Shown in pieces: positions 26,474 to 49,256 of a stretch of 64,000 nucleotides of DNA. The notes under the pieces are model-generated. The model ran no database searches, had not been told where the DNA came from, and saw only the letters and a list, made by a program, of their open reading frames with translations. The DNA is taken from NCBI GenBank assembly GCA_963843555.1, contig CAWJKV010000014.1, positions 19,758-83,757 of the forward strand, read 5' to 3'. Position numbers and translations under genes: made by a program. Positions within the stretch are counted from its first letter, which is position 1, and every line of letters begins with the position of its first letter. The DNA comes from an uncultured Methanosarcinales archaeon. Its GTDB lineage: Archaea > Halobacteriota > Methanosarcinia > Methanotrichales > Methanotrichaceae.

Positions 26474-26500
26474 TTATCGTCTTATAGCGATAAGTTTATA
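26474..26500 (+). promoter_or_regulatory. Palindrome TTATCG-N8-CGATAA next to TATA box; putative ArsR operator
   Basis: 26474-26493 inverted repeat, TTTATA at 26495, ATG at 26528. Confidence 0.6.
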
Positions 26501-26527
26501 TCAGAATGGGTTTAGCATGCCTATATC

Positions 26528-26890
26528 ATGACCCAAAAATCTGTCTCGGATCTACGAGTCAAGATCCTTGATGCACTTTCAGACCCCACAAGGCTGGAGC
26601 TGTTGGAATATCTCTCCCAGGGAGAGCGTTGCGTCTGCGAGATCATCCCTGCCTTTCAGAGATCCCAATCCACCATATCCAAACATCTGAACATCCTCCA
26701 CGAAGCAGATATCCTAGATCGTAAGCTGGAGGGCAAGAGGACAGTTTACAGAATAAAAGATCCTCAAGTATTTGATCTGATCAGAATGGTGGACAGTATG
26801 GCTCTGAGGCAGATATCTCAGCTTAATGAAGCCGGAAAGATTCTGGAAAAATCCCTCAGCAATACTCAATTCTCGGCGCAACTTCAATAG
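26528..26890 (+). CDS. arsR: ArsR/SmtB repressor
   Basis: ALSDPTRLELL, ERCVCEI, SQSTISKHL. Confidence 0.9.
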   Translation: MTQKSVSDLRVKILDALSDPTRLELLEYLSQGERCVCEIIPAFQRSQSTISKHLNILHEADILDRKLEGKRTVYRIKDPQVFDLIRMVDSMALRQISQLNEAGKILEKSLSNTQFSAQLQ

Positions 26891-26903
26891 GTGTTGATCT
26901 CAA

Positions 26904-27986
26904 ATGGATACATACACGATTATGGCGGCTCTGCAAGCAGGCTTCGCAACATTGCTGGAATATCTATCGGCACACGTTTTGACCTGCCTGATTCCCGCAT
27001 TCTTCATAGCCGGCGCCATTTCCACACTCCTGCATAAGGAGACAGTGCTTAAATATTTCGGAGCTGACGCGCCCAAATGGCTTTGCTACAGCGTGGCTGC
27101 CACTTCAGGAACGGTCCTGGCTGTATGCAGCTGCACCATCCTGCCCATGTTTGCAGGAATAGAAAAGAGAGGCGCAGGAATCGGCCCAGCCACGGCCTTT
27201 CTCTTCTCGGGTCCAGCCATCAACATCATGGCCATAATACTCACGGCGCGGGTCTTGGGCCTGGATCTGGGAGTAGCCAGAGCGGTAGCGGCGGTCACCA
27301 TGGCGGTCGTCATCGGCCTCATCATGGCTGCCATATTCCAGAAATCTGAAAAAAAATGTGAATCTAAACCCGCTGCAACCGCCCAGATAGATTCCGACTC
27401 TGAGTCGAAGAGCCGTCCCGGCTATATCACAGGCTTATTCATGGCCATCCTGGTGGCCATATTGCTCGTGGCCACCTCCAGCTTCTTCGCATTATTGCCT
27501 AAATCGATAATCGTAGGAGCACTGGTATTATCAGCCGTTTTCCTGATGAAGACCTACTACCTGCCCGAAGAGAGAGATGAGTTCCTATCCGAGACCTGGT
27601 GGCTGACCAAGAAGATCTTTCCCCTGCTGGTAGTGGGCACATTCCTCACCGGCGTTATCGGTTACTTCATGCCCATGGAATGGATTCGCGCCGTCTTTGG
27701 CACCAGCAGCTTTTCGGCCTGCTTTTTGGCCTCGGTCATAGGCGCTCTGCTCTACATGCCCACGCTGCTGGAGGTCCCTATTGTGGGAACTCTCTTCGGC
27801 TACAGCACCGGCGATACCGCCGCCGGCCCCGCGCTATCGCTCTTGCTTGCCGGACCGTCTTTGAGCCTGCCAAGTATGATAGTGATCACAAGGGTAATTG
27901 GTCTGAAGAAAGGAGGCGTATACATAGTTCTGGTTGTCATAATGTCGACCCTGGCCGGCATGATATATGGAGCAATTGTTTCATAA
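26904..27986 (+). CDS. arsP: ArsP/DUF318 permease
   Basis: AVCSCTILPMF, FLFSGPAIN, YMPTLLEVPI, LLLAGPSLSLPS. Confidence 0.85.
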   Translation: MDTYTIMAALQAGFATLLEYLSAHVLTCLIPAFFIAGAISTLLHKETVLKYFGADAPKWLCYSVAATSGTVLAVCSCTILPMFAGIEKRGAGIGPATAFLFSGPAINIMAIILTARVLGLDLGVARAVAAVTMAVVIGLIMAAIFQKSEKKCESKPAATAQIDSDSESKSRPGYITGLFMAILVAILLVATSSFFALLPKSIIVGALVLSAVFLMKTYYLPEERDEFLSETWWLTKKIFPLLVVGTFLTGVIGYFMPMEWIRAVFGTSSFSACFLASVIGALLYMPTLLEVPIVGTLFGYSTGDTAAGPALSLLLAGPSLSLPSMIVITRVIGLKKGGVYIVLVVIMSTLAGMIYGAIVS

Positions 27987-28009
27987 TTAATAGTAGGGGT
28001 CAGAGGAAA

Positions 28010-28480
28010 ATGAAGAACATTTGGAGAGGAAGTGTTGCGGGTTGCATCCGAAAACGGGCAGCAGGTGAAAATAGCATCTCTCTATTTTGCTGGCATGACC
28101 ACTCTGCCACTGCAGATCAGCTCCGCCGGCTTGAAGGTGTATCCAAAGAGGTTGAGCAGCCGTCAAGGTGAGCATCCATCTCTACAACCAGGCTGCAATG
28201 GATACAATCACCTGGGAGGATCAGCCTGAGTATAATCCGGAGGCCTTGAGAACCTTGAATATCCAGAGCCGGGCTGGCAGACCTGGGACGCAACAGCCTT
28301 CGTGAAAAAGGCGGCAGTGGAATGCAGCGAGGCTGTCCTTTCTCCATGGTATTGGTGTCAGAGGACTGATTTACCTGATGATTTATAACCTGGGCATAGT
28401 GCTTCCCGTGCTGCTCTTAGGAGTCGCCAAGGCTCTTGGCATGAGCCCAGTGAAGGTGGATAATTTCCGGAACCGTCACA
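28010..28480 (+). pseudogene. Degraded CcdA/DsbD-like membrane gene remnant
   Basis: 28358-28478 reads VRGLIYLMIYNLGIVLPVLLLGVAKALGMSPVKVDNFRNRH (CcdA-type YNLG..LP helix); no intact ORF. Confidence 0.45.
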
Positions 28481-28565
28481 ATGATTTAGGCGAAAGGAAT
28501 GGGCTCAAGTTTATCCGGTAAATGGATATTGAGAATCGGAAAATCAAACTCGTGAGGTGGATTAA

Positions 28566-28802
28566 ATGGTGAAGATCGAAGTATTGGGAACAGGCTGTGC
28601 CAAGTGCAAGAGCCTATTGAAGAACGTGGAGAAGGCGGTCTCGGAGTCTGGCATTCAGGCGGAGATCATCAAAGTGGATAGCATCCAGGAGATCATGGAT
28701 CGGGGTGTGATGATGACCCCCGCGCTCTTTATCGACGGCGAGTCCAAAATGGTTGGAAAGACCGGCAGTGTGGAAGAGATAAAGAAGATGCTCAAGAAAT
28801 GA
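28566..28802 (+). CDS. Small redox-active disulfide protein (MTH895-like thioredoxin)
   Basis: IEVLGTGCAKC, GVMMTPALFIDG. Confidence 0.9.
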   Translation: MVKIEVLGTGCAKCKSLLKNVEKAVSESGIQAEIIKVDSIQEIMDRGVMMTPALFIDGESKMVGKTGSVEEIKKMLKK

Positions 28803-28814: not shown

Positions 28815-29195
28815 ATGGAAGAGAAAAAGAAATGCCTGTGCAGTTCCTCGGATGTACGTGTCGTAGCCTGCTCCGGAGCCTCAAATGTGGGACAGATCGC
28901 AAACCAGGCGGCAATCGAGCTGGCCAGAGAAAATGTGGCAGGATTCTTCTGTCTGGCGGGAGTAGGAGCCCATATTAAAGGAATGGTCAAATCCGGGAAA
29001 GAAGCTGATCTGATGGTGGCCATAGACGGATGTCCTGTGCAGTGTGCTGCCAAGACTTTGCAGCATGCCGAAATCGAGCCTGCGATACAGGTAATTGTAA
29101 CGGAACTTGGAATTGAGAAGTCTCATGATATCGCAATTGATGAAAAGGCCTGCTCTAAAGTTGTAGCAAAGGTAAAGGAAGAGCTGGCTGCCTAA
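28815..29195 (+). CDS. DGC-domain putative zinc-binding protein
   Basis: ACSGASNVGQ, CLAGVG, IDGCPVQCA. Confidence 0.9.
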   Translation: MEEKKKCLCSSSDVRVVACSGASNVGQIANQAAIELARENVAGFFCLAGVGAHIKGMVKSGKEADLMVAIDGCPVQCAAKTLQHAEIEPAIQVIVTELGIEKSHDIAIDEKACSKVVAKVKEELAA

Positions 29196-29212: not shown

Positions 29213-30316
29213 ATGAGTTTATTGAAATCAAAGCTGATGCTGATTTGCATAATCTTCGGGATCCTATTGGCGGTCATAGCCCTTACACAGAACGCATATG
29301 CAGGAGCGGAATGTGCATCCTTGGGCGGTGGTTGCGACGACGGCGGCGACTGGAACCCCATGTCCAAGCTGGACGAGATTGGAAAGCCAACCACCAACAG
29401 TCAGGAGCAGACTGCGGCCAAGTGGCCGGAGAAGTCGAGGCAGATGAGATGGAACATGAATGCTTCCACCCAGGAGGATGAAAAGAACACGGCTTCGGAG
29501 ACTCCTGAGAAGGCTGAAGCGCCTGCTCAGAAGGCCATACCTGTAAAGGTTGCAGAGGATCCTGCAAGGATAGTACGCAGCCCTGAGGCAAAAACGATTC
29601 TCGCTCCACTGGACACGGTCACGGATGGTGATATTCTGTTGGACGTGAGCGAAAACTCCAGCACGCATATTGCTGGGTCAGTGGTCATACCTTACATGGA
29701 GTTTGACGTGCAAGCTGGAGTTTTGAAACCCGCGCCTGAAATCTCCAAGATTCTGGGAGACGCCGGAATCTCTCGTGATGATTCCGTCGTAATCTACGGA
29801 GAATGCCTGCCCTGCGGAGGAGGTCCGTCTGTAGCGACTTACATCTACTGGATGATGAAGAGTCTGGGTCATGAGACGGTGAAGGTTTTAGACGGGACGG
29901 CCGAAGACTGGGAGGCAATGGGACGGGACACCACGAAAGACGCCCAGATACTACCCAGCAAAATCTACAATCCCGTAGAAACAGCAAATTACACTGCAAC
30001 CTATGAGTTCGTAAAGAGCGGCCAGGCGCAGATCGTGGACGCCAGGACTTTGCAGGAGTTTGGGTCCGGAAGCATACCGGGATCGATCAGCATACCCTAT
30101 ACCAGCGTGCTGAATGGGAAAAAGATCAAAGGCGAGGACCAGCTGAATAAGGTTTTTATGATTCTGGACAAAGACCAGCCGGTAGTTGTCTTCACCAACA
30201 CGGGTATGAAAGCCTCTGTGGTCTGGTTCGCCCTGGAGATGATGGGTTATGATGCCAGGCTCTACAATTACCAGGATTGGACGGTAAATCAGCCTTCTAA
30301 AGGCTATTTGGGATAG
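29213..30316 (+). CDS. Exported tandem-rhodanese (TST-fold) protein, CLPC type
   Basis: Signal peptide; GISRDDSVVIYGECLPCGGG; IVDART; catalytic loop VVVFTNTGMKAS (Cys replaced by Thr). Confidence 0.85.
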   Translation: MSLLKSKLMLICIIFGILLAVIALTQNAYAGAECASLGGGCDDGGDWNPMSKLDEIGKPTTNSQEQTAAKWPEKSRQMRWNMNASTQEDEKNTASETPEKAEAPAQKAIPVKVAEDPARIVRSPEAKTILAPLDTVTDGDILLDVSENSSTHIAGSVVIPYMEFDVQAGVLKPAPEISKILGDAGISRDDSVVIYGECLPCGGGPSVATYIYWMMKSLGHETVKVLDGTAEDWEAMGRDTTKDAQILPSKIYNPVETANYTATYEFVKSGQAQIVDARTLQEFGSGSIPGSISIPYTSVLNGKKIKGEDQLNKVFMILDKDQPVVVFTNTGMKASVVWFALEMMGYDARLYNYQDWTVNQPSKGYLG

Positions 30317-30328: not shown

Positions 30329-31885
30329 ATGATATTAATCAAATCAAATTCGTGTAGAGCGGAACCAGCGGAACGCAAGGGCTTCTCTGCAATAGCTAGT
30401 ACGGTGCTCATTTACGGGGTCATTTCCATCCTTATGCATGGCCTGGTCTTGAGTGCGCCTGTCTTGGCAGGCACGGAAACGGGCGAGTTCTGCCCCACCT
30501 GCCCTGACTGGAGCGACATGGATGGCTGGCTGGCGAAGAAGGCGGCATATGATCAAGAACAACAGAACGTTAAGCTCAATGTCCAGCAGATCCTACCTGA
30601 GACTCAGAATGCAGATCCGGCTCCCGTTCAGAATACCAATGCATCCGTCCAGAGAGACTATTCTCCAGCTCGGACATCCAGGTTTGCCGAGGCGCTCGTA
30701 TCTCCGACAGAGGTCTCGCCTGAAGACGTTGTGCTGGACATCAGCCCCAGCGCTACAAAATACATAGACGGTGCTGTGAATGTCAACTACGAGGGCTTTA
30801 TGGGCGAAGGCGGTCAGCTCAAGCCCATCTCAGAAATTGCCTCGTTGCTTGGCGATGCAGGCATATCCCGCAACGACTCTCTGGTGATTGCAGGCGAGTG
30901 TCTTCCCTGTGGTGGCGGTCCATCCCCGGCAGTCTTCACCTATTGGCTGCTGAAGTACTTGGGGCATGAAAAAGTAAGAGTTCTGGACGGCAGCATCGAG
31001 GACTGGACGGCGGCCGGGCTAAATACCAGCAATAAGTCTGCCACAAGGCCGAAGACGAACTACACTCTCCTGCTTATGCCGGAGCTTCTTGCTACCTTTG
31101 ACTATGTCGTTAACGGCGGGGCCCAAATCGTGGACGCCAGGCCTGCCGTAGACTTCGGCATGGGTTCTATTCCCGGAGCCGTAAACATTCCCTATGAGAA
31201 TGTGATCGAGAATGAGAGAATAAAGCCCGAAGAGGATCTGCAGAGGGCTTTCATAGAGCTGGAGAAGGACCGGCCTGTCGTGGTTTATACCAATGTAGGC
31301 GTTGAGGCCTCACTGGTATGGTTTGCTTTGACCCTATCTGGCTACGATGCCAGGCTATACTCCTGGCGTGACTGGACTGAAAATCTGCCCAAGTTCGGAT
31401 TCGAGCTGGAGAATGTTGAGGCCCAGCCCAACCCAGTTCAGTCCGGCTCGACTACGACTATAACGGCATCTTTCCAGGAGTCGCAGACTAATGCTACAGA
31501 GAATTCATCGCAAAACGGCGAGACCAAGCTCACGATTAAGGGATGCTCTACCTGCGGATTTGAGGGTTTCGCTCTCGGCACCTCAGGCGCCTCCGGGGCC
31601 TCCGGGAATAATTCTGGGATAGTCCAACTTGGTTCATCCGGCAAGACATCGCAGGCAGGCGGGGTGCAGGCTGTCGATAGCGCCTTGCGCTGCACCGCCA
31701 TAATTAACAGCCCTGACGGCACCGAGGTAGCAAGGACGAGCCTGCTGCGCACCTCCGCATACCAATATATGGGGATCTGGAATGCCAATGTGGCACCCGG
31801 GATTTACAAAGTGAGTATATCGGCCACAGCCTCTGGCAGCGCAAAGACCTTTGCAGATGTCCTGGAGATAGAGGTAACCCTTTAG
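30329..31885 (+). CDS. Exported tandem-rhodanese protein with CPTC, CLPC, CSTC and a C-terminal beta (Ig-like) domain
   Basis: Hydrophobic N-terminus; IAGECLPCGGG; VVVYTNVGVEAS; C-terminal YxGxWNANVAPGIY. Confidence 0.82.
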   Translation: MILIKSNSCRAEPAERKGFSAIASTVLIYGVISILMHGLVLSAPVLAGTETGEFCPTCPDWSDMDGWLAKKAAYDQEQQNVKLNVQQILPETQNADPAPVQNTNASVQRDYSPARTSRFAEALVSPTEVSPEDVVLDISPSATKYIDGAVNVNYEGFMGEGGQLKPISEIASLLGDAGISRNDSLVIAGECLPCGGGPSPAVFTYWLLKYLGHEKVRVLDGSIEDWTAAGLNTSNKSATRPKTNYTLLLMPELLATFDYVVNGGAQIVDARPAVDFGMGSIPGAVNIPYENVIENERIKPEEDLQRAFIELEKDRPVVVYTNVGVEASLVWFALTLSGYDARLYSWRDWTENLPKFGFELENVEAQPNPVQSGSTTTITASFQESQTNATENSSQNGETKLTIKGCSTCGFEGFALGTSGASGASGNNSGIVQLGSSGKTSQAGGVQAVDSALRCTAIINSPDGTEVARTSLLRTSAYQYMGIWNANVAPGIYKVSISATASGSAKTFADVLEIEVTL

Positions 31886-32182: not shown

Positions 32183-32206
32183 TTATATATCGGCAAAGAT
32201 TGATAT
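32183..32206 (+). promoter_or_regulatory. TATA box overlapped by ATATC-N10-GATAT operator
   Basis: TTATATAT 32183-32190; ATATC ggcaaagatt GATAT 32187-32206; degenerate copy at 32071-32090. Confidence 0.7.
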
Positions 32207-32220
32207 GATCTGCGATTATC

Positions 32221-32514
32221 ATGGGACTGAAAGATAAGATCTTCGGAGATAAGGCCAGCAGCGGTTGCTGCTGCGGCACGCGCATCGTCGGCCTGAGGCA
32301 GATCAACGTCGGGGGACGCAACACGGGAATTATGGGAATGGACGAGACCTTCCAGGAATACTTTAAAAAGGGAAAGAAGCCCGAGGATTCTACCGGAGAT
32401 GAGATGGTCGAGGATTTAAAGAAGCTCAATTTCATCGCCGAGGATGCTGAGAAGATGTATAAAGAGGCTTTTTTGAGAGAGTATCAAAGGTTCTACGAAT
32501 CCAGGAAGAAATGA
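32221..32514 (+). CDS. Small conserved protein with N-terminal CCC motif
   Basis: SSGCCCGTR; I.VGG..TGI.G.D; first gene after the promoter. Confidence 0.75.
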   Translation: MGLKDKIFGDKASSGCCCGTRIVGLRQINVGGRNTGIMGMDETFQEYFKKGKKPEDSTGDEMVEDLKKLNFIAEDAEKMYKEAFLREYQRFYESRKK

Positions 32515-32959
32515 ACTCCGCAGAAGGGAATGGTGACATCAATAGTGACCGGCAAAGAAGGTTTGCGAGGATTCAAAGATCGATGAGGATGCAATATGCA
32601 GCCTGGCGAGGCTCATCGGAGACACGGACAAAGCCCGAGCCAGGACCAGGAAGCTCGCCTCATTGATGAAGAATATCGAGATGGAAGGCCCGGAAGGAGA
32701 GGTCGATGTCTTCAAGGCGGCTGCCGACCCCTGCCGGCTCAGGATTCTTAAGCTTCTCAAAGAAGGAGAACTCTGTGTCTGCGAGATCATGACCGCCCTT
32801 AAAAAACCTCAATCCTCCACCTCCCATCATTTGTCCATTTTGAGAGAGGCGGGACTTGTCAAAGAGCGCAGAGACGGCAAATGGTCCTATTATCGACTTG
32901 CGGATGGAGCGGTCAATGAGATGGTCAAACAGGCCGGAGCACTAAAGAAAAAACAATAA
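32511..32959 (+). CDS. arsR: ArsR/SmtB repressor, 5' end frameshifted (ORF track starts at 32663)
   Basis: ADPCRL, ELCVCEI, PQSSTSHHL; upstream in-frame EDAICSLARLIGDTDKA matches paralog 46125 but has no in-frame start; ATG 32511 overlaps the previous stop. Confidence 0.8.
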
Positions 32960-32980
32960 AAATTTTTGAAGGATATAAAA

Positions 32981-33880
32981 ATGTTTTGGGAAGACTTAGC
33001 GGTAGCGGCGAATTTCTTCGTGGAAATCGCTGTAGAATTGATCGTTTTATTCATAGGCATAACCTTTCTCGTGGGGCTAATACAGGAGTACGTACCGGAT
33101 GAGACCATAAAGAAGGTCCTTGGTGGGCAGCACAAAATTCTGGGCAGCATCCTTGGGGCTGGATTCGGCGCTCTTACGCCATTTTGTTCCTGCTCGACCA
33201 TACCTCTCCTCCTGGGAATGCTCAACGCCGGCGTGCCCTTTGCATCTGCAATGTCATTCTTGTTCGCTTCTCCGCTGCTGAACCCGGTGATAATATCATT
33301 GTTCGTCATTTTGATGGGATGGAAGATAACTGCGCTCTACTTTGCCGTCACCTTTGTGGGCGCAATTGCCATCGGTCTCTTGCTCGATAGCCTCGGCTTT
33401 GCCAGTCAGGTGAAATCCGTGGCCGCAGTACGAAGCTGCTGTGACTGCCAGCAGGCAGCGGATGCGAAATCGAGGATACAACGCTCTGCTGCAAATGCAT
33501 TCAGTTTATTCCGCCAACTCGTGCCCTATCTCCTGTTAGGCGCAGGCATTGGTGCATTCATTCATGGATTCGTTCCTACGGAGATCATCACCCGCTTCGC
33601 AGGGCCGGACAATCCCTTGGCCGTTCCTGTGGCCGCTCTCATAGGCATTCCCATCTACATCCGGGCCGAGACCATGATCCCCATCGGCCTGGTCCTCACG
33701 GAGAAAGGCATGAGCGTGGGGGCCGTCCTGGCACTGGTTATCGGCGGAGCGGGGGCGAGCATCCCTGAGCTGACGCTTCTATCGGCCATATTCGAGAAGA
33801 AGCTGCTGGCAGCCTTCGTGCTTACTATCTTCAGCATAGCGGTGGCTGCGGGATATCTGGCCAATTTGCTGGTAGCTTAG
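32981..33880 (+). CDS. arsP: ArsP/DUF318 permease (second subfamily)
   Basis: TPFCSCSTIP, FLFASPLLNP, GIPIYIRAETMIPI, GAGASIPE; central SCCDC. Confidence 0.87.
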   Translation: MFWEDLAVAANFFVEIAVELIVLFIGITFLVGLIQEYVPDETIKKVLGGQHKILGSILGAGFGALTPFCSCSTIPLLLGMLNAGVPFASAMSFLFASPLLNPVIISLFVILMGWKITALYFAVTFVGAIAIGLLLDSLGFASQVKSVAAVRSCCDCQQAADAKSRIQRSAANAFSLFRQLVPYLLLGAGIGAFIHGFVPTEIITRFAGPDNPLAVPVAALIGIPIYIRAETMIPIGLVLTEKGMSVGAVLALVIGGAGASIPELTLLSAIFEKKLLAAFVLTIFSIAVAAGYLANLLVA

Positions 33881-33974: not shown

Positions 33975-34064
33975 GCCATAACATTCATATATGCACATTT
34001 GCACATGTATAAGAAAAAGGCCAAAAGCTAAATGGCAATGGCAGATGCATGATGAAATTCGGGC
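33975..34064 (+). repeat. ~90-bp duplicated promoter/operator segment, copy 1
   Basis: Aligns with 35305-35397; contains TCATATATG-N10-CATGTATAA at 33985-34012. Confidence 0.8.
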
Positions 34065-35304: not shown

Positions 35305-35397
35305 GGCCACAACATTCATATATGCGCATTCTCACATATATGATGAAGAGACCAAAAGCTCAACTGCAATCGCCGAATGCGTGATAAAATTCGTGCC
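35305..35397 (+). repeat. ~90-bp duplicated promoter/operator segment, copy 2
   Basis: Perfect arms TCATATATG-N10-CATATATGA at 35316-35343. Confidence 0.8.
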
Positions 35398-41192: not shown

Positions 41193-41555
41193 CTATTCAG
41201 ATCTAAATACGGAAGCTGTATTCTGAGCTCCACAAGTTTTCTTTTTAGCCAGATCTTCCATAGACGACAGTTCGGTGCACAAGGACTCACAAAGACTTTG
41301 GAATAGGCTCGCTTCTACTTTATTTCCGGGATCACTTAGGGTATAGTATATCCATAAACCCTCCCGCCTGGACTTCAAAAGGCCTGCACGACGCAGGATA
41401 GCAAGATGACGGGAAGCCTTTGTCTGCGAGATGCCCAGAGCGGCCTCGATTTGACAGACGCAAAACTCCCTCTTGTAAAGCAAGACTATGAGCCTCAGTC
41501 GCGTTTCATCGGAGAGTGCCTTAAATAACTCAACGTATTGTTCCGTTTGGTTCAT
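41193..41555 (-). CDS. arsR: ArsR/SmtB repressor
   Basis: FKALSDETRLRL, EFCVCQI, SQTKASRHL. Confidence 0.9.
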   Translation of the reverse strand: MNQTEQYVELFKALSDETRLRLIVLLYKREFCVCQIEAALGISQTKASRHLAILRRAGLLKSRREGLWIYYTLSDPGNKVEASLFQSLCESLCTELSSMEDLAKKKTCGAQNTASVFRSE

Positions 41556-41557: not shown

Positions 41558-41585
41558 ATTTACATGCAAATATGCGCATATATGA
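41558..41585 (-). promoter_or_regulatory. Operator TCATATATG-N10-CATGTA directly upstream of arsR (autoregulation; probably leaderless)
   Basis: Same motif as 33985 and 35316; ends 2 bp before the ATG. Confidence 0.75.
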
Positions 41586-41635: not shown

Positions 41636-42084
41636 TTATTTCCTAAACGTATGTGATATCCAATCCTTTATCTCATCCCTCACTTGCCGGAAGACCTCAA
41701 GCTGCTCCTCCTCAGAGCCTGTGGCCAGGGCAGGATCCTCGAAGCTTCAGTGAATGACTTCTCTTGCTTTAGGAAATTTGTAGGAAGCTCAAACTCTGTG
41801 CTGCAGATCGGGCAGGCCTGTTTGGCCCGGTTGCAGACAGTGACTGCCAGTTCAAATACTGTATCCTGAAATTCCATTGAAGACTTGGATTGCTGACCAG
41901 AGATATCGATGCCGATTTCCAACATGACCTGCACGGCGCGAGGATCGACCGATGCGGCCTCGACTCCGGCGCTGTAAGCCTGGTATCGATCGCCGTACAT
42001 GGCCCGCAAGAGGCCTTCGGCCATCTGGGAGCGGGCGGAGTTGTTAGTGCAGAGAACGAGAACCTTCTTCTTATCCTGGTGCAT
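41636..42084 (-). pseudogene. arsC: Thioredoxin-dependent arsenate reductase (LMWP fold) with frameshift and in-frame TGA
   Basis: LCTNNSARSQMAEG, TVC..A..ACP; after a shift near 41775 reads PKAREVIH*SFEDPA...VFRQVRDEI (TGA 41747-41749 at the conserved Trp). Confidence 0.85.
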
Positions 42085-42217
42085 CGCAAGGGATGTCATC
42101 CATGTCTCAATGCTCATCAAAATAGATCAGCATTTTGCCCGTTCTGTTGCAGGAGGATTTTTGCAGTATTCTGGAGGCAGGTTACATTGAAATCCTTCCT
42201 TGCATAGACTATTGCAG

Positions 42218-42514
42218 ATGACCTGTGACGAGCAGGAGCTTTATGATATCTTGCAAGAGATCGAGGCGCTCTGCACAATGCACGAGCGAATTACGCAGTC
42301 CTCCAAGTGCCGGGAGTTCAACCACCGCGCTGCCCTGCTGCTGCAAAGACTGGAAGACTCTGAATGCGATCGTCTGGCGGATAGGACCATGGACCTTCTG
42401 GCATCCTGCAATCCCAAAGACCTCTCTCAATGTGACAGCATCCAGCGTGCCAGGGATGTTCTGCAGAGGCTGAGGGAGATGGCCAGAGAGAACTTGAAAG
42501 AAGAAAAAGATTGA
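42218..42514 (+). CDS. Hypothetical helical protein with 6 Cys
   Basis: ORF 42200..42514, ATG 42218; divergent from arsC. Confidence 0.55.
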   Translation: MTCDEQELYDILQEIEALCTMHERITQSSKCREFNHRAALLLQRLEDSECDRLADRTMDLLASCNPKDLSQCDSIQRARDVLQRLREMARENLKEEKD

Positions 42515-42582: not shown

Positions 42583-43294
42583 TCAGTTTACCTTTGAGAC
42601 GAATGGATAATGATCGATTGAAGATCCATCATCTATCTTCCTGGGCAGATCGCAGAATCCATCCTTATCGGTGTCATTGCAGCCTTCCTTTGGCTCGTCG
42701 TAATCGCCATAATGGTTTCCTTTCATCTGTTTTCCAGTAAATAATTCCAAAAGCCCTTGTATTCCATCTGAGTTCTGGCTGCTGCTATTCCACGAATTGC
42801 CACCCTGATCTCTGGCTGCGATTTCATTCCCCCGCAGATCATTAGATACAAAGATGTTATTGACAGATCCCATCATGACGTATATGCCGTACTTATTCTT
42901 GTAGAAGACATTATCAGAGATCGTGTTGTTATTGGATTCAATCCGTATTCCCGCATTTCTGGAGCAAGCGCATCCGGTAGAGCCGGTCAGATTAAACCCC
43001 TTTACCGTAGATCCATTGGCTATCAGGGCGATTGCATTTCCAAATCCTTCTGCATCTACAACTGGCAAGCCATCGCCTGTGTCAAGGCCTATTAAGCTTA
43101 CAGCTTTGACAACTTTGAGCCTTTCCCGATATGTTCCGCTATGAAACTTCAATGACATCTCCATTACTTGAGTTATCGATGGCCTTCTGGATCTGTGGGT
43201 AGTCTTCGTCTAATGGGCCTACAGTAATTTTTACCGCTTGGGCCAGGTCAATGATCAATATTATTGTTAATATAATTAATAGACTTTTTCGCAT
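42583..43294 (-). CDS. Exported NosD/CASH beta-helix protein (N-terminal +1 frameshift)
   Basis: MRKSLLIILTIILIIDLAQAVKITVGPLDEDYPQIQKAID from 43294; extra T near 43145; STGCACSRNAGI; GCNDTDKDGFCD. Confidence 0.8.
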
Positions 43295-43438: not shown

Positions 43439-44839
43439 TTACCACATCTTGTACCCCAGGTACCTCACCGCATAGACGAGGCCGATCAAGATCACTGCCA
43501 CTCCGAAGATCTTGGTCACATACTTTCCGGCATAGATGTACTTCTCGCCGATCTGCCCGCCCACAGCCCTGGAGAAGGTGGAAATGGGAATCACAGGCAC
43601 GCCATGGCCCAATCCGAAGACGAAGAGCATCAGGCCTCCCACCAGGGGTGTCACGTCCTGGGAGATGAGCCAGATGAGCACCGGGAAGACCAGGGACACG
43701 GCGCAGGGTGCCCAGCCCAGGGCGAAGAAGACGCCCAGGGTGAAAGCTCCAATGAAGGCCGAATACTCGAAAAGGCCCATGGAGAAGTGAACCAGCCTCT
43801 CCATTATGCCCTTCTTTTGCACCGGCGAGTCATCTTCATCAGCATCGGCTTTGCGGAAGGAGAAGTGCGACCTGACCGGCTCAATGATCTCGCCGATGGG
43901 CTTGATGATATTTATTCCCAGGATGATCATCAAGAGGCCGGCTGCCAGGTCAAAGAAGCGGGCCTGGCGGATGAAGACGCCGATGTCTGAGAGAAAGAGC
44001 CCCAGCACGAAGAAAACCAAGGCCATGCCCAGAGTGAAGGCCACCCCGATCATGAAACCCTCTTTGGAGGCCGTTGCTGACTTCTTGAGGTACTCCTCTT
44101 TCCGGCGAGCAGTCATGACATAGGAGAACATAGCCAGGAGCAGAGCCACGGAGCAGGGCGAGAGGGAAGTTACAATTCCCAGGACGAACATGGTCAGGTA
44201 GTTCACGCCCTGGCTGGATGCGATTCCTTCGAATCCGGAAGCCTCACCGCTCTCCATGCTTTTCAGGTCACTGTAAAGAGAATCAGCGCTCTGGATGCCA
44301 TCGATCTCGCCCTTGCCGAGCTGGTAGACGTGGAAGAGGTCCGCAACGTTTCCTTCTTTATCTATCAGGATCAGCGTAGGGTTGGCAAAGCCGCCCTCCA
44401 GGGTGGAGTAATCGATGTATTTGCTGGTAAGAGGATAGGGCTCAAAGTCCTCAATCCAAGGCCAGGTTACATTGGTGTTCCACCAGAAACTGGCCAGAGT
44501 CCGGCCGTCCTCTGAGTATGGGTTCTTCCGGACGTTGAGGGTTATGATATTAATGCCGGGATCCTTCTGCTTTAAGATGGAAAGCTCCCGGGTCTGGGCG
44601 TTCAGTGCGTTCTCGCACTCCCTGCAGAGGGGATTCTCAATGTTGGTGATGTGCAAAAGGACGACCTCACCCCGGTAGTCGCTCAAGGAGACATTCTTTC
44701 CATCAAGGTCCACTGCCTGAAAATCAGGAGCTTTAGCCTCCTGTGCCAGGCCTGTTGACAAGCTTAAGAAGAGGGAACATAAGATGACAAAAAGGGTGAT
44801 TGGTCCCAAAATCAGGGATCTTTTAATTTTGAAAGACAT
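43439..44839 (-). CDS. Exported redoxin (TlpA/AhpC-TSA-like, CREC) fused to CcdA/DsbD
   Basis: Signal peptide; APDF..VDLDGKNVSLSDYRGEVV; PLCREC; TSLSPCS; GWAPCA; FGLGHGVP. Confidence 0.87.
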   Translation of the reverse strand: MSFKIKRSLILGPITLFVILCSLFLSLSTGLAQEAKAPDFQAVDLDGKNVSLSDYRGEVVLLHITNIENPLCRECENALNAQTRELSILKQKDPGINIITLNVRKNPYSEDGRTLASFWWNTNVTWPWIEDFEPYPLTSKYIDYSTLEGGFANPTLILIDKEGNVADLFHVYQLGKGEIDGIQSADSLYSDLKSMESGEASGFEGIASSQGVNYLTMFVLGIVTSLSPCSVALLLAMFSYVMTARRKEEYLKKSATASKEGFMIGVAFTLGMALVFFVLGLFLSDIGVFIRQARFFDLAAGLLMIILGINIIKPIGEIIEPVRSHFSFRKADADEDDSPVQKKGIMERLVHFSMGLFEYSAFIGAFTLGVFFALGWAPCAVSLVFPVLIWLISQDVTPLVGGLMLFVFGLGHGVPVIPISTFSRAVGGQIGEKYIYAGKYVTKIFGVAVILIGLVYAVRYLGYKMW

Positions 44840-44869: not shown

Positions 44870-45412
44870 TCATTTGTTCCAGTTAGCGGAGTTCTCGTTA
44901 TAGTAGACTAATGCGTCCTCGATATATTTCTTGGTCCAGCTCTCGCCTGTAACCTCATCAGTGCTGTGCCAGACCGGCACGACCTTTCCCTCCGCATTCG
45001 GAGCCAGAGTTACAATAACTGTCAATGGCACATACATGCCGCCGCCGTTGGGATCGTATGCCCGCAGGGCTTCTTCTGATCTGGCATCGCTTCCGTCAGC
45101 AGATAAATTGAAGTAGGTGAATTCATCTCCCATCTCGTCAACTATCTTTGTCAGGGCCTCTGTCTGAGGTGCACAGTAGCTGCAGCCTTTGTGAGCGTAG
45201 ACAACCACAGGCTTGCTTTCTAGAGCGTCCAAAACCCAAGCAGGATGGTTGACCTCACCGCCTTTACCACTGGATTGATCCGGATATGTTGTCCACCAGT
45301 CATTATTTCCCGATCCTACTGAATATTCAGCACCCATGACATTAACGCTGAACGCCAGAATGAAGACCGCAATCAAAGATGCTACGCAAACTGTTTTCTT
45401 GATTATGCCCAT
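44870..45412 (-). CDS. Exported thioredoxin-fold protein (CSYC)
   Basis: Signal peptide; KPVVVYAHKGCSYCAPQ; YVPLTVIV cis-Pro loop. Confidence 0.82.
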   Translation of the reverse strand: MGIIKKTVCVASLIAVFILAFSVNVMGAEYSVGSGNNDWWTTYPDQSSGKGGEVNHPAWVLDALESKPVVVYAHKGCSYCAPQTEALTKIVDEMGDEFTYFNLSADGSDARSEEALRAYDPNGGGMYVPLTVIVTLAPNAEGKVVPVWHSTDEVTGESWTKKYIEDALVYYNENSANWNK

Positions 45413-45587
45413 GATACACTCTCCTTTAGCTCCATTTTTTCATCTTGACGAAATCCTACTATGAGGTCTGAGGCTGCAAATTGTCCTCGATAATAGCTCT
45501 CGCTTCAAGTTTTCAAGTCGCCTTAACTGAGTTCTTTTCAGATCAGATCATCTGAATTGCCCGTTAACAGGGCAAGCCTAGAACGGC

Positions 45588-45607
45588 ATATCGACATTAT
45601 TGGATAT
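45588..45607 (-). promoter_or_regulatory. ATATC-N10-GATAT operator upstream of the trx-ccdA-nosD operon
   Basis: ATATC gacattattg GATAT. Confidence 0.65.
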
Positions 45608-45811
45608 AAGTCTTTCGACTTTATGATCTATATAGTCTTACATAGGAAAAATTTTTGTTAGAATCCCTTTCATCTAACAGCATTTCGGCGAACATACATA
45701 TTTTCAATTGTTAATTTCGGCCATCTTGTTACCTAATTATGTGGAAAATGTTTAATATATTTAATTAAAGACAGATGTCGTAATTGGATTTAACTGTATG
45801 ACGGGAAAATC

Positions 45812-45835
45812 TTATATATCGAAATAACTGGATAT
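45812..45835 (+). promoter_or_regulatory. TATA box overlapped by ATATC-N10-GATAT operator
   Basis: TTATATAT 45812-45819; ATATC gaaataactg GATAT 45816-45835; same geometry as 32183. Confidence 0.7.
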
Positions 45836-45946
45836 GGATAGCCGGATTAACCTGCGGTATGGACGGACCGGTATACGCTAAATCAGAAGAAATACTGTAT
45901 ACAGCCAGCAGTCAACAGAGAAGGCACAAGAGGGTGAAATGCCAAA

Positions 45947-46099
45947 ATGAGCACGGTGAAATGCGAAATATGCAATAAAGAAGCGGAATCCCTATTCATC
46001 GTAAGTCACAAAAAGAGGGGTAGAATAAGAATATGCTGCGACTGTCTGAAGCAAGAGGGGCCAAAGCTTCTAAATCAAAAAAGCTGCAGTTGCTGTTGA
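45947..46099 (+). CDS. Unannotated 50-aa Cys-rich protein (zinc-ribbon/metallothionein-like)
   Basis: MSTVKCEICNKEAESLFIVSHKKRGRIRICCDCLKQEGPKLLNQKSCSCC*; GGGTGA RBS; below the ORF-track length cutoff. Confidence 0.75.
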   Translation: MSTVKCEICNKEAESLFIVSHKKRGRIRICCDCLKQEGPKLLNQKSCSCC

Positions 46100-46124: not shown

Positions 46125-46517
46125 ATGACATGCGTTACGGAAGAAGCTGTTAACAGGATGACACGGCTGATCGGCGATGCCGATAAAGCCGAATGCAAGG
46201 TCGACAAGATCCGTTCCATAGTGAACAGCATAGACGAGCTGGAGATCGAGGAGGAGGCTGAGATATTTCAGGCTATGGCCGATCCCTGCCGACTCAAGAT
46301 CCTCATGCTCCTGAGAGAAGGAGAGTTATGCGTCTGCGAGATCATGATCGGTCTCGACAGACCCCAATCCAGCACATCTCATCACCTTTCCATCCTCAAG
46401 GATGCAGGGCTCATCAAAGAGCGCAAGGATGGGAGATGGTCCAGATACCGGCTGTCCGAGGGCGCTGTTATTGAGATGCTCAATATGGTAAAGCTGATGA
46501 AAGAAGCTAAAATCTGA
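46125..46517 (+). CDS. arsR: ArsR/SmtB repressor (paralog of 32511)
   Basis: ADPCRLKIL, ELCVCEI, PQSSTSHHL. Confidence 0.9.
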   Translation: MTCVTEEAVNRMTRLIGDADKAECKVDKIRSIVNSIDELEIEEEAEIFQAMADPCRLKILMLLREGELCVCEIMIGLDRPQSSTSHHLSILKDAGLIKERKDGRWSRYRLSEGAVIEMLNMVKLMKEAKI

Positions 46518-46533: not shown

Positions 46534-47631
46534 ATGACCAAATTCGATACTATTCACAATGATAACGCCAGCTCAACTCTTGACCGAAAGAGATCAGGCT
46601 CAAGAGGGTTCTATGTTCTGGGAATTCTGATAATTTCCTTGATGGCTTTTGCGCCCGTAGTTGACGCGGGCTGCAGTTGCGGCGGAGGCACCTGGGATCC
46701 TAGCGGTTTCCTCAACTCTGAACCTGGAACCGGCCAGCCCGTCCAGCCAGGCAGCGCCCAAAACAACGCTGCTGGATATTCCGGTAACAGCACGCAGAAT
46801 TCCGGTATAAACACAGAGAAGCCGTTGGATAGGGCGGCCTCTTTTCCTAATGGTGGGATCCTTAAGTCCATGAAGAGCGTTTCCAGCTCAGATGTGGTAG
46901 TGGACGTATCCAACGGCGACAGCTACGCGAAGTCTCATATCGAGAATGCCATTCACATTCAAACCAGAGACTTCTTAGATGGCGCTGGCAACCTAAAAAC
47001 AGATGAGGAACTAGCCTCGATCTTGGGCGATAAAGGCATCTCCAGAGATGATTCAGTAGTCCTTTACGGGAATAAAGAGAGCTCTGGGGAAGCCGAATTT
47101 GCCTTCCTGGTGCTACAACACTTGGGACAAAAGGATGTCAGACTCCTGGATGGAAGCCTGGCAGACTGGAAAGCTGCAGGCTTGCCTGAGGCGGCTTTGG
47201 AGAATATAAAGCCTAGCGTTGTGTACAACCCCGAAGTCAACCCCAAGGTTATAGCCGAATTCGAATACGTGAAGTCCAAACAGGCCCAGATCGTGGATGC
47301 CCGGCCCTTTGTGGAGTTTGGCAAAGGCCGCATACCAGGCTCTGTCGCTCTGGATCCAGCCAATATAATTAAAGGAGATCGTATCAAGAATGGAGACGAA
47401 CTGGGTATGGTATTCGGCAGGCTGAGCAAAGACCAGCCGATCGTAGTTTATTCCAGCGATTACAGCCGCTCATCTCTGGTCTGGTATGCTCTGCAGCTCA
47501 TGGGATATGAGGCCAGCATCTACACCTGGGAGGATTGGAAGGCGAACGAGGCAACGGGGGAGCAGGCCGCTACGACTCCGGCTGGAGGAGGCACTGCCAG
47601 CACGAAATACACAAAGCTGGGCAATACGTGA
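46534..47631 (+). CDS. Exported tandem-rhodanese protein lacking both the catalytic Cys and CLPC
   Basis: Signal peptide followed by GCSCGGGTWDP; VVLYGNKESSG; IVVYSSDYSRSS. Confidence 0.82.
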   Translation: MTKFDTIHNDNASSTLDRKRSGSRGFYVLGILIISLMAFAPVVDAGCSCGGGTWDPSGFLNSEPGTGQPVQPGSAQNNAAGYSGNSTQNSGINTEKPLDRAASFPNGGILKSMKSVSSSDVVVDVSNGDSYAKSHIENAIHIQTRDFLDGAGNLKTDEELASILGDKGISRDDSVVLYGNKESSGEAEFAFLVLQHLGQKDVRLLDGSLADWKAAGLPEAALENIKPSVVYNPEVNPKVIAEFEYVKSKQAQIVDARPFVEFGKGRIPGSVALDPANIIKGDRIKNGDELGMVFGRLSKDQPIVVYSSDYSRSSLVWYALQLMGYEASIYTWEDWKANEATGEQAATTPAGGGTASTKYTKLGNT

Positions 47632-47669
47632 TCGTCTAAGTATTATGCCATTGGGAGGAGAGTTCTAAC

Positions 47670-47741
47670 TACAAACTGGGAGTGAACTATGAGAACACGG
47701 CGGCTCTCTCCTTCACCGCGGCCAGCAACAACTTCGAGCTG
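47670..47741 (+). pseudogene. acr3: 72-bp relic of a second acr3 gene
   Basis: Translates to [24 protein letters not shown] versus [24 protein letters not shown] in the intact Acr3. Confidence 0.8.
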
Positions 47742-47817
47742 AAGCTGAGGGATAAGTACTATCCCGGTGCGCCCTGATAAGATATTTGCGAAACTAATAG
47801 TTAGCATGGTGAGATAG

Positions 47818-48615
47818 ATGACTGGATCGCCCGCTGAGGTAAAGCTCGTGAGCAACGCAATGGCCAACGCCACGAGGAGAAAGATAATGGCCATGCTGGT
47901 GGAGAAGGACAGAACAAGAGCAGAGATCGAGCAAGAGATAGGAGGCTCCATGCTGGACTACCACATGCAAATGCTGCAGCAAGCCGGCTTGATCGACATC
48001 AAGGAAGACGCTATGGTTCTAACCGATTTTGGAAAGAACTTCATGGAGACCAAGGCCGAGAAGCCGGCCGAGGCCAAGAAAGATCTTGCAGGCACAAAGC
48101 CCCTGGAAGTCGTCGAGCTCAGACAGCTCTTGCCCTGCATTGCCGACAGCACCAAGTTCAGGATTATTGCCCGTTTTGAGCCACCTTTGGGCGGTGCCCT
48201 AAAACTCCTGGAGCCCCTATTCCCTAGGGCCAGGTACTCGGAGAGGATTGGAGCGCTCATCATCCAGAAGGGCAATATTCTCATCACCGTCTATTCCACC
48301 GGCAATGTTACCATGACCATGATCAAGAGCGAGGCAGAGGCTCGAGAGACTATGGAGGATCTGAAGAGGACCATCAACGAGGCCATAGCTAAGGGGGTGA
48401 CTCCAGTTCCAAGAGAGAAGATCAAGGTAGATCACGCTGAGATCTATGAGTACCTTCCCAAGACCAATTGCCAGATCTGTGGAGAGCAGAGCTGCTACGC
48501 TTTCGCCATCAAGCTGGTGGGAAGGGAGACAGCTCTGGATAAATGCACTCCGCTGCTGGAGGCCAAATACGCCACCAATCTGGAGCATGTCAGGGCATTG
48601 CTCGAATACCTCTGA
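47818..48615 (+). CDS. ArsR-like HTH fused to a putative Fe-S domain
   Basis: N-terminal wHTH (ANATRRKIM..LDYHM); LLPCIAD; C-terminal LPKTNCQICGEQSCYAFA...CTPL. Confidence 0.85.
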   Translation: MTGSPAEVKLVSNAMANATRRKIMAMLVEKDRTRAEIEQEIGGSMLDYHMQMLQQAGLIDIKEDAMVLTDFGKNFMETKAEKPAEAKKDLAGTKPLEVVELRQLLPCIADSTKFRIIARFEPPLGGALKLLEPLFPRARYSERIGALIIQKGNILITVYSTGNVTMTMIKSEAEARETMEDLKRTINEAIAKGVTPVPREKIKVDHAEIYEYLPKTNCQICGEQSCYAFAIKLVGRETALDKCTPLLEAKYATNLEHVRALLEYL

Positions 48616-48627
48616 AGGAGGAACACC

Positions 48628-49000
48628 TTGAAGACGCTGACCATCATCCTCACGGACGGTCCCTACATCTCAGAATATGCCGAGATGGCCTACAAGATCG
48701 CATCAGAGTCGCTGAAAGATTTCAGGTTAATATATATTTCTTCACCTGGATGCGGTGCATATTCCCAAGCTCGGGCAAAAGCCTTCTCTTTTTGGAAATG
48801 CTGGCCTGTTATTCCAGGAGCAGGCCGAGAGGGGAGCTGTGGTCAGGGCCTGTGCCAGGTGTGCCACAGCCAGAGGCTACCTGGCCGGGGAAGATGGCGT
48901 CTGCGCGGATTATCATCCGGGGAAAAGATCACCAGCCTCTACGATCTGGCAGAGATGATGGAGAAGAGCGACAGGGCAATTGCCATTCGAAGACAGGTGA
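48628..49000 (+). pseudogene. DsrE/TusD-like sulfur relay protein, frameshifted
   Basis: TLTIILTDGPY; FLHLDAVH; VRACARCATARG; ITSLYDLAEMMEKSDR spread across frames. Confidence 0.75.
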
Positions 49001-49003
49001 AGC

Positions 49004-49256
49004 ATGGACAATAAAAGAGATCTTCCTTCTGACCAAGACGCCTCAAAATGACCGCACGAAGCTATGCCTTGACCTCATGGAGCTTTCGGAAAATGGCGTT
49101 CTGTATATCGCCGGAGACGGGGTCTACAATTTGCTTGAAGAGACAACTCTCGAAGTCCTACCAAGGGGGAGGATTCTGGACCTAAAAGATCTCTTGAATG
49201 CAAAGCAAAAAGACCTATGTAGGATTAAAGTGTCTGCATCGATGCAATATCATTGA
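49004..49256 (+). pseudogene. DsrH/TusB-like protein, frameshifted near the start and possibly truncated
   Basis: EIFLLTKTP...CL...VLYIAGDGVY; extra A in ATAAAAGAG. Confidence 0.55.

Follow-up and report, generated by a model that had tools for sequence, protein, structure and literature searches.

Conserved linkage of predicted exported rhodanese-fold and thiol-redox genes with arsenic resistance genes in Methanothrix and its relatives

Arsenic resistance is usually pictured as stopping at efflux. Here, an island of 23 kb was analyzed in which arsenic resistance (ars) genes are interleaved with genes for rhodanese-fold proteins, CcdA-type membrane proteins and thioredoxins. It is part of a stretch of 64,000 nucleotides, called the window in the following, which covers positions 19758-83757 of contig C14 of a Methanothrix genome (2.68 Mb, 18 contigs, 82% complete). 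One of the closest described systems is ArsEFG, which was reportedly described by Chen, Zhang and Rosen in 2019. ArsE, ArsF and ArsG are listed among organoarsenical resistance genes in the available part of PMC9144182, and efflux by Acr3 and ArsP is established for these families according to the accessible text of PMC6205960. The presence of CcdA and thioredoxins in ars operons was reported in 2010 for 8 cases (PMC2963123), and an operon of the order ArsR-ArsP-ArsE-DGC was up-regulated by arsenic in Pseudodesulfovibrio mercurii ND132, as stated in the available portion of 10.1101/2022.10.17.512643. In addition, ScsB-TlpA-PprX is a CcdA-type chain that feeds an envelope protective enzyme, with electrons transferred by CcdA-type carriers (accessible part of PMC5403849), and TsoB is a fusion of rhodanese and DsbD parts (accessible part of PMC13188914).

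The linkage between the redox genes and the ars genes was found to be real and conserved, and chance linkage was rejected. In 45 genomes of the family 34 of the 37 acr3 copies adjoined a rhodanese gene, 32 of them within 600 nt and two by fragments at contig ends (L109, and L110 with L021). The three copies without an adjoining rhodanese were those of L113, L114 and L133. In the relatives it is rhodD that adjoins acr3. That a protein predicted to be exported accompanies 34 of 37 acr3 genes across a whole methanogen family suggests a function on the outer side of the membrane; export and signal peptides were predicted solely by hydropathy and a cleavage-site heuristic. For rhodA-like genes the best 28 of 206 matching loci were analyzed, and arsP1 was present upstream in 22 of them and the ArsE thioredoxin in all 28. 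arsP1 was located at 49 places, many of them at contig ends. Copies of ccdA2 with at least 75% identity were within 5 kb of acr3 in 21 of 31 cases, and distant copies in 2 of 45. The pattern was seen also in other genera of the family (L069, L073, L076). The rhodanese family itself was detected in 36/36 congeners and in 9/9 genomes of other genera of the same family, versus 0/24 genomes of other families (E 1e-20). All of these counts describe conservation and are not independent trials, as the genomes are kin, many are fragmented and some records are possibly the same assemblies. The original prediction had proposed a gene-neighborhood comparison as its check. The acr3-rhodanese linkage was kept in this comparison, while paralogues of the rhodaneses, of both CcdA/thioredoxin fusions and of the NosD-like proteins were found in core loci without ars genes. 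Homologues mostly unlinked to ars genes had been named as refuting evidence, and this was thus observed in part.

The island comprises seven transcription units (U1-U7), as deduced from open reading frame (ORF) calls and gap sizes. The intergenic gaps within units are mostly -4 to 30 nt, with exceptions of 58 nt before arsR2 and 100 nt before rhodC. U1 is arsR1-arsP1-[remnant]-arsE-DGC-rhodA-rhodB, U2 is orf97-arsR2-arsP2, and U3 is acr3 alone. U4 is CMD-orf211-ccdA1-nosD1-arsD-arsA-rhodC. U5 is arsR3, with the broken arsC upstream on the same strand, U6 is the gene for the CSYC thioredoxin (trx) and ccdA2, followed by nosD2, and U7 is 50-aa ORF-arsR4-rhodD-[acr3 remnant]-FeS/HTH-dsrE-dsrH. 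GC content along the island is 0.44-0.53 without an abrupt step. The predicted set of canonical ars genes (four arsR, two arsP, acr3, arsD, arsA and a broken arsC) was verified by profile scores above cut-off. Curated cut-offs were exceeded by four ArsR (NF033788), two ArsP (PF03773), ArsD (NF033727), DGC and CMD, by Acr3 (TIGR00832, 465 versus 283 bits) and by ArsA (TIGR04291, 761 versus 650 bits). The same was true for four Rhodanese-domain proteins, two NosD-domain proteins and CcdA2 (DsbD_TM and Redoxin). Acr3, ArsA, ArsD and ArsR are thus clustered and all above cut-off, as in ars operons of the Acr3/ArsA/ArsD type. The ars genes and their direct partners are listed in window coordinates.

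26528..26890, plus strand: arsR1, ArsR/SmtB regulator with CVC motif (family profiles)
26904..27986, plus strand: arsP1, ArsP_1 permease (PF03773)
28815..29195, plus strand: DGC-domain protein (PF08859)
32221..32514, plus strand: orf97, CCC-bearing protein, conserved beside arsR2
32663..32959, plus strand: arsR2, true start may be further upstream (family profile)
32966..33880, plus strand: arsP2 permease (PF03773)
34192..35289, plus strand: acr3, arsenite efflux transporter (TIGR00832)
35446..35712, plus strand: CMD/AhpD-like protein with CQPC (family profiles)
37905..38411, plus strand: arsD metallochaperone (NF033727)
38408..40165, plus strand: arsA ATPase (TIGR04291)
41193..41555, minus strand: arsR3 (family profile)
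41636..42120, minus strand: arsC, thioredoxin-type arsenate reductase, broken by a frameshift and an in-frame stop
46125..46517, plus strand: arsR4 (family profile)

The redox genes had been predicted to share operons and operator-like boxes with the ars genes, and both the co-location and the boxes were seen across relatives. The boxes in the window are the following.

26474..26493, no strand assigned: operator-like palindrome box 1, upstream of arsR1 (genome motif count; kept upstream of arsR1 in relatives)
32186..32207, plus strand: operator-like box 2, upstream of orf97-arsR2-arsP2
33986..34009, plus strand: operator-like box 3, upstream of acr3
35317..35340, plus strand: operator-like box 3, upstream of the CMD-orf211-ccdA1-nosD1-arsD-arsA-rhodC unit
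41561..41584, minus strand: operator-like box 3, upstream of arsR3
45587..45608, minus strand: operator-like box 2, upstream of trx-ccdA2
45815..45836, plus strand: operator-like box 2, upstream of the arsR4 unit

Genome-wide, box 1 was found only upstream of the two arsR1 copies, one in each of two ars islands, and it is kept in relatives. Box 2 has the sequence TATATC-N10-GATATG and precedes U2, U6 and U7; three copies are present in the window versus 0.00 expected by chance. Five of its seven matches in the genome belong to the two ars islands; when the spacer length was varied, 0-3 matches were obtained. Box 3 occurs at exactly three sites of the genome at up to 5 mismatches (upstream of acr3, CMD and arsR3), and each copy, used singly as query, retrieved only the other two. 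In relatives, box 2 was counted in its orientation, replacing a palindromic count over 420 nt that could score a neighboring divergent box. The oriented box was present upstream of 17/18 small ORFs, 7/11 orf97 matches and 9/20 trx genes of the ars clade, but of 0/21 distant trx genes and 0/19 core NosD genes. From their position and symmetry the boxes are putative ArsR sites.

The rhodanese-fold proteins were the next group. The original prediction had counted four exported rhodanese-fold proteins and spoken of CLPC-rhodanese homologues in its proposed check. Four Rhodanese-domain proteins are indeed present; CLPC was found in only three of them, RhodC is predicted to be anchored rather than cleaved, and export is a prediction of the heuristic named above.

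29213..30316, plus strand: rhodA, tandem rhodanese fold, predicted signal peptide; CLPC loop at 29804-29815; Thr for the catalytic Cys
30329..31885, plus strand: rhodB, like rhodA, with an N-terminal CPTC and a C-terminal domain (weak Ig-like match) with CSTC
40266..41168, plus strand: rhodC, predicted anchored CLPC rhodanese, nested in the rhodA clade (quick tree; hydropathy heuristic)
46534..47631, plus strand: rhodD, tandem rhodanese fold, predicted signal peptide, no loop CxxC, N-terminal CSC

The model of mature RhodA had a mean pLDDT of 80.7, with values above 90 in the core, and the N-terminal 90 residues were unresolved. It matched tandem rhodaneses in both domains (Z 27.2, rmsd 2.4, 234 aligned residues, 25-27% identity). 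In the alignment with mycobacterial CysA, AYCRIG corresponded to VFTNTG, i.e., Thr takes the position of the catalytic Cys, and in the first domain the equivalent loop carries a five-residue insertion, ECLPC. Both features are general: CxPC was kept in 118/120 rhodA homologues, a loop CxxC was present in 87/89 rhodanese locus rows other than those of rhodD itself, and the canonical catalytic Cys was found in 0/120 homologues and 0/101 locus rows. The C-domain loop T-x-T-G-x-K-x-S is conserved. RhodD has only the N-terminal CSC, and a Cys pair just past the predicted cleavage site was seen in 11/12 rhodD rows. The assignment as classical tandem sulfurtransferase (TST/MST) was rejected, as the catalytic Cys is missing in the C-domain loop. 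The loop motif of rhodanese-fold arsenate reductases of the ACR2/Cdc25 type is HCX5R, and this assignment was rejected as well, because the two loops read GECLPCGGGP and FTNTGMKAS. No literature match was found for exported tandem rhodaneses with Thr for the catalytic Cys and a CxPC loop in the other domain, although supplements and subscription papers may already list these neighbors. The ESM Atlas returned archaeal rhodanese clusters only and no new fold lead, and Cys pairs in predicted exported proteins genome-wide (39/259) were not enriched over cytoplasmic ORFs, based on noisy ORF calls. Distant CxxC-bearing rhodaneses were detected in 6/39 genomes of one other family, without ars neighbors in 8 loci. 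In L066, L067 and L068, from another family, a distant rhodanese with a predicted signal peptide was observed that has YcaO/radical SAM genes on one side and the gene for methyl-coenzyme M reductase beta on the other (Pfam check: L066).

The complete tandem fold would fit a role in sulfur trafficking, in which rhodanese-fold proteins and DsrEFH move sulfane sulfur on or off arsenic (thioarsenate), coupled to Acr3. A dsrE gene was within 5 kb of acr3 at 23 of 41 places, and the unit arsR4-rhodD-acr3-FeS-dsrEFH recurs in relatives. This explanation is nevertheless quite unlikely, since the catalytic Cys is missing from all rows tested, rhodaneses and DsrEFH are predicted to reside on opposite sides of the membrane (outside and inside, respectively), no acr3 was found within 5 kb of the other 18 of the 41 dsrE copies, and CcdA supplies electrons and not sulfur. 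The DsrE/H pair had been noted before and is present, but both genes are decayed and dsrF is missing, so that the window does not have three intact DsrEFH/TusDCB subunits; they are intact in L058 and there score below the Tus cut-offs. Outside the window, contig C14 carries a further arsR-like-FeS/HTH-dsrE-(dsrF)-dsrH unit at 90136-92530, with no adjoining arsenic exporter.

The membrane electron carriers and thioredoxins of the island are as follows.

28566..28802, plus strand: ArsE/MTH895-family cytoplasmic thioredoxin with CAKC (TIGR00412, 103 versus 62 bits)
35734..36369, plus strand: orf211, predicted membrane-anchored thioredoxin fold without CxxC (structure model)
36388..37104, plus strand: ccdA1, CcdA-like membrane protein with conserved CCxLP and CNP, three Cys (homologue alignment)
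43439..44839, minus strand: ccdA2, predicted exported CREC redoxin domain fused to DsbD_TM, both Pro-Cys motifs (Pfam)
44870..45412, minus strand: thioredoxin/glutaredoxin-like protein with CSYC, predicted signal peptide

The presumed cytoplasmic thioredoxin exists and turned out to be a member of the ArsE family, i.e., an already known ars gene. Of the two proposed CcdA/DsbD proteins, CcdA2 has the features of a CcdA/DsbD carrier (DsbD_TM 45.1 versus 27.1 bits, SPC and APC Pro-Cys motifs) together with its CREC redoxin domain. CcdA1 has no Pfam match of its own, while many of its homologues have PF02683 or a CcdA name; it has Cys at both Pro-Cys positions, but no preceding Pro. A PDB sequence search with the CcdA1 profile gave no relevant match. 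It had also been noted that no c-type cytochrome would explain the CcdA copies, and this was borne out: the cytochrome c assembly protein PF01578 was found in neither this genome (0/1, 82% complete) nor congeners that are 95-99% complete (0/5), with positive controls in 9/14. A cytochrome c role was therefore rejected, and the CcdA copies need another role or acceptor.

The protein encoded by orf211, which had been overlooked before, has no Pfam or NCBIfam family match. In its model a single membrane helix precedes a thioredoxin fold that has no CxxC (best E 6e-5, TM about 0.55-0.6 to the targets). A Cys that follows the presumed cis-Pro is conserved, and the ends of the protein are rich in Cys. 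The prediction of a complex with CcdA1 scored 0.29 versus a mark of 0.32 and gave no answer either way. All 12 ccdA1 loci had an ars gene within 3.5 kb. The orf211-ccdA1 pair was present in 8/300 genomes of the class, all of them in the family of Methanothrix, and it recurs in anaerobic bacteria, where 13/14 loci had an ars gene by BLAST, in one of them arsR only. No literature match was found for the pairing of orf211 with a three-cysteine CcdA, although supplements and subscription papers may already list such neighbors. In one bacterial locus (L092) the mercury methylation gene hgcA (13508-14545, NF040863 above cut-off) was observed directly downstream of an ars cluster with orf211-ccdA1 and a P1B ATPase, and an ORF similar to it lies likewise downstream of an ars cluster in L093 (4505-5542).

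These proteins could also carry out a chemistry like that of ArsEFG, i.e., CcdA, thioredoxin and rhodanese-fold proteins would directly reduce or export a specific pentavalent organo- or thio-arsenical, with the CxPC rhodanese as extracytoplasmic reductase and the three-Cys CcdA1 as ArsG-like transporter. ArsE is above its cut-off, ArsG is the best NCBIfam match of both CcdA1 and CcdA2, the three Cys of CcdA1 are kept (CCxLP in 119/120 and CNP in 120/120 homologues), and the conserved T-x-T-G-x-K-x-S loop could cradle an oxyanion. However, membership in ArsF or ArsG was ruled out by profile scores. CcdA1 and CcdA2 scored 35.5 and 50.1 versus an ArsG cut-off of 200 (NF040495; the control in the bacterial locus L089 scored 268), and for ArsF (NF040494) no match was found among 30 window proteins, nor with orf211 or the CSYC protein at E 0.05 (L089 control 90 versus 60). 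In L089 true ArsE, ArsF and ArsG stand side by side with a separate orf211-ccdA1 pair, which is followed by a P1B ATPase and acr3, and the two sets are therefore distinct. Furthermore, reduction of As(V) outside the cell would yield a more toxic species, and core paralogues with the same motifs are not accompanied by ars genes. This explanation is thus unlikely. Somewhat less doubtful, but still only possible, is that the CxxC/CxC pseudo-rhodaneses are a dedicated extracytoplasmic acceptor or reductase, recharged by CcdA, which would take As(III) or methylarsenite from Acr3 or ArsP, as an outside counterpart of ArsD, or convert thioarsenic; orf211 and the three-cysteine CcdA1 would then be a second, mobile arsenic-handling membrane module common to methanogens and anaerobic bacteria.

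The core paralogues bear on the origin of these parts. A family-wide core locus, in which CcdA/Trx-CBM96 is divergent from NosD-rhodA'-rhodB'-subtilase, was observed on contig C5 (69800-77700) and in L029-L041, L046, L048, L070, L074 and L075; it looks like an undescribed envelope protein maturation cluster. In 19/19 of such loci there was no ars gene within 3.5 kb. A quick tree of 99/101 rows (two fragments were dropped) placed the ars-linked rhodanese clades A, B and D apart from the core clades and from a stand-alone clade. Distant trx-ccdA2 pairs were mostly located among unrelated genes. Both the separate branches and the absence of ars genes from the core loci support a housekeeping origin. 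The explanation that is tentatively favored, at slightly less than even odds, is that a housekeeping envelope thiol-reducing pathway was duplicated under ArsR control and would buffer exported trivalent arsenic.

According to this favored explanation, As(III) or methylarsenite would bind the CVC sites of ArsR and all units would be derepressed. Acr3 with ArsA/ArsD would export As(III) and ArsP would export methylarsenite, activities that are established for these families. Following CcdA/DsbD biology, the ArsE-type thioredoxin would reduce CcdA2, and electrons would pass to the fused CREC domain and to the CSYC protein; in relatives, the intact CcdA/Trx fusion of the arsP1 operon would do likewise. 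In the weakest step, CREC and CSYC would in turn pass electrons to the rhodanese-fold proteins, reducing their CxPC loops and N-terminal Cys pairs; the rhodanese-fold proteins would serve as thiol sink or thiol-repair adaptor, not as classical sulfurtransferases. Arsenic leaving via Acr3 or ArsP would encounter reduced Cys pairs, which would either bind it or be repaired afterwards, and envelope proteins would be protected. The induction of the units, the export of the proteins, the order in which electrons pass and the binding of arsenic are all predictions from the sequences.

Several results weigh against this explanation. The linkage counts are not independent, as the genomes are kin, and the loci of the relatives were fetched around these same genes. 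An upstream box 2 was lacking in 11/20 trx matches of the ars clade. RhodD, the copy most tightly tied to acr3, had no loop CxxC in 12/12 rows, and one of the 12 also lacked the N-terminal Cys pair. Six genomes of another genus had arsP1 followed by the CcdA/Trx fusion without a rhodanese in the unit (L103-L108), and their sole ccdA2 was not near acr3. The bacterial orf211-ccdA1 pair is often followed by a heavy-metal P-type ATPase, and the island copy studied here is partly decayed. In ArsR1, ArsR2 and ArsR4 there is presumably no counterpart of the third nearby Cys that E. coli ArsR has, and the inducer may therefore not be arsenic alone. For CcdA of ars operons, transmembrane electron flow has been deemed less likely than electron supply to ArsC (PMC2963123).

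Six of the best 28 rhodA-like loci have neither arsR nor arsP, and no ars gene except arsE (one with arsC), which also weighs against the favored explanation. It would be in accordance with a general soft-metal or thiol-stress regulon, in which ArsR also senses Hg, Cd, Cu or persulfide and the exported proteins shield the thiols of the envelope without being specific for arsenic. The parts are among the family's core envelope genes, ArsP-like permeases weakly match Cu/Zn efflux models, and in L047 the rhodanese follows arsR and a Cd-type P1B ATPase. The direct neighbors are, however, Acr3, ArsA, ArsD and ArsC, and a further rhodanese paralogue with a predicted signal peptide, representing another clade, directly follows an ArsM-like gene (contig C6 11749-13778, L121, L126, L130; 55% to an above-cut-off ArsM); the distance from there to the core trx-ccdA2 is 3-4 kb. 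Such a regulon thus has a low probability, similar to that of sulfur trafficking. On contig C2, another ArsM-like gene (64% to an above-cut-off ArsM) was observed about 3.5 kb from the second copy of the island.

This second copy (contig C2 189000-207500), which had been overlooked, contains U1, U6 and U7 at 189-203 kb with 82-97% protein identity and an intact acr3. A small Cys-rich, predicted exported ORF is upstream of its arsR1. Further features had been missed: the 50-aa Cys-rich ORF, a third CcdA/Trx gene and a second acr3, the latter two present as remnants. The remaining features of the island are the following.

28014..28479, plus strand: remnants of a CBM96/DNRLRE-domain gene and of a CcdA/thioredoxin fusion gene (tblastn; intact in loci L021, L024-L026)
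37124..37880, plus strand: nosD1, beta-helix protein, predicted signal peptide, frameshift near 37796, not a conserved island member
42218..42514, plus strand: orf104, small Cys-rich protein, recurrent in ars loci of relatives
42583..43294, minus strand: nosD2, inverted near-duplicate of nosD1, frameshift after the predicted signal peptide
45947..46099, plus strand: 50-aa Cys-rich ORF, two CxxC and C-terminal CSCC, first gene of the arsR4 unit
47670..47795, plus strand: remnant of a deleted acr3 (tblastn)
47818..48615, plus strand: HTH and putative Fe-S domain protein (Pfam)
48628..49256, plus strand: decayed dsrE and dsrH; dsrF missing (DsrE-F-H intact in locus L058)

The acr3 remnant of U7 and the CcdA/Trx and CBM96 remnants of U1 were intact at the same positions in relatives. 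The 50-aa ORF had homologues in 19 fetched loci and on contig C2 and no NCBIfam match; it is possibly a small metal- or arsenic-binding protein. In this assembly arsC, nosD1, nosD2, dsrE and dsrH are broken. The arsC gene retains the CX5R loop, but its frame is interrupted by one frameshift and one in-frame stop, while the copy on C2 is open from the loop to the end. Frame breaks were found in 19/83 tested orthologues, and because of this high load pseudogene calls in this genome are unreliable. Since such breaks are common and the nosD1 break is absent from three related wetland contigs, the single-base breaks may be assembly errors; the deletions look real. The contigs compared did not extend over the arsC breaks.

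Two NosD-like genes had been counted as part of the island. Both are present, both are broken, and 0/31 NosD1 homologues were within 20 kb of acr3 or arsP1, which ruled out NosD as a conserved island member. The two genes are inverted near-duplicates (80-85% over 380 nt) flanking arsD-arsA-rhodC-arsR3-arsC, and their scores for the NosD of nos clusters (TIGR04247), obtained with frameshifted fragments, were 55 and 59 versus a cut-off of 300. They are probably passengers. That the exported genes in general were swept into a rearranging island and have no role in arsenic resistance would fit the NosD-like genes and the decayed remnants, but it is highly improbable: the adjacency is kept in three genera, ArsR units contain rhodaneses of at least three clades and CcdA proteins of three types, and trx-ccdA2 of the ars clade has its own oriented box.

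Rfam gave no matches in window positions 24000-52000. Elsewhere in the window, a predicted exported 242-aa protein without Pfam or NCBIfam match is encoded at 24124-24852 on the minus strand, with copies on C5 (three, 83-96%), C11 and C15. An ORF of 2925 aa (4365-13142, plus strand) has a start that we take to resemble cyclic beta-glucan synthase-type proteins. An 812-aa ORF (19675-22113, plus strand) that is arylsulfatase-like by motif has a GC content of 0.54-0.59 and is followed by a CLC-type channel-like ORF; this stretch was possibly acquired from bacteria.

Methanothrix is a dominant acetate-using methanogen of wetlands, paddies and digesters, and in these habitats arsenite, methylarsenic and thioarsenates co-occur. 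If a dedicated acceptor or reductase exists, arsenic resistance in these acetoclastic methanogens, a major group, would include a further step after efflux. With the island, the role that CcdA and thioredoxins play in ars operons, noted in 2010 and still unexplained, also becomes accessible to testing. The protein type itself is of interest, since it combines a rhodanese fold that no longer has the catalytic Cys with an acquired, thioredoxin-like CxPC loop, and occurs in organisms without a detected cytochrome c assembly gene.

Six comparisons place the island among known systems. The full two-domain fold is shared with CysA2/CysA3, SseA and bovine rhodanese, which, unlike the island rhodaneses, do not combine it with Thr for Cys, an ECLPC insertion, a predicted signal peptide and a flexible Cys-bearing N-terminus. 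As far as described in the available part of PMC13188914, the island resembles TsoB/TsoR/ExtH in bringing together rhodanese, DsbD-type and ArsR-type parts, TsoB being a rhodanese/DsbD fusion selenoprotein. In the island, however, the parts are separate genes, which scored 16-23 bits versus cut-offs of 805 (TsoB) and 200 (ExtH). With DsbD/ScsB/CcdA-TlpA-PprX it has in common a membrane electron carrier that serves an exported thioredoxin and a protective protein, and PspE is an exported rhodanese in disulfide chemistry; in the accessible text of PMC5403849 these chains are not tied to arsenic, and PspE is an active rhodanese with a single Cys. As in ArsEFG, an ArsE above cut-off and a CcdA-like protein with thioredoxin-fold partners are found beside arsP, while the CcdA proteins fall far below the ArsG cut-off, and ArsEFG and orf211-ccdA1 coexist as separate sets. 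The first unit has the gene order of the ND132 operon, as far as given in the available portion of that source, and is extended by rhodA and rhodB and, in relatives, also by CBM96 and the CcdA/Trx fusion. Like the operons of 2010, the island contains a CcdA-type membrane protein, thioredoxins and an MTH895/ArsE protein among its ars genes. It differs from them by its CxPC rhodaneses (no rhodanese is named in the main text of PMC2963123), its three CcdA types, predicted exported Trx domains and its archaeal host. The island had been put forward as a candidate new system. The rhodaneses and the orf211-ccdA1 pair had no literature match, the occurrence of CcdA and thioredoxin genes in ars operons was already known, and as a whole the island is an ars cluster that resembles known ones, and not a new kind of system.

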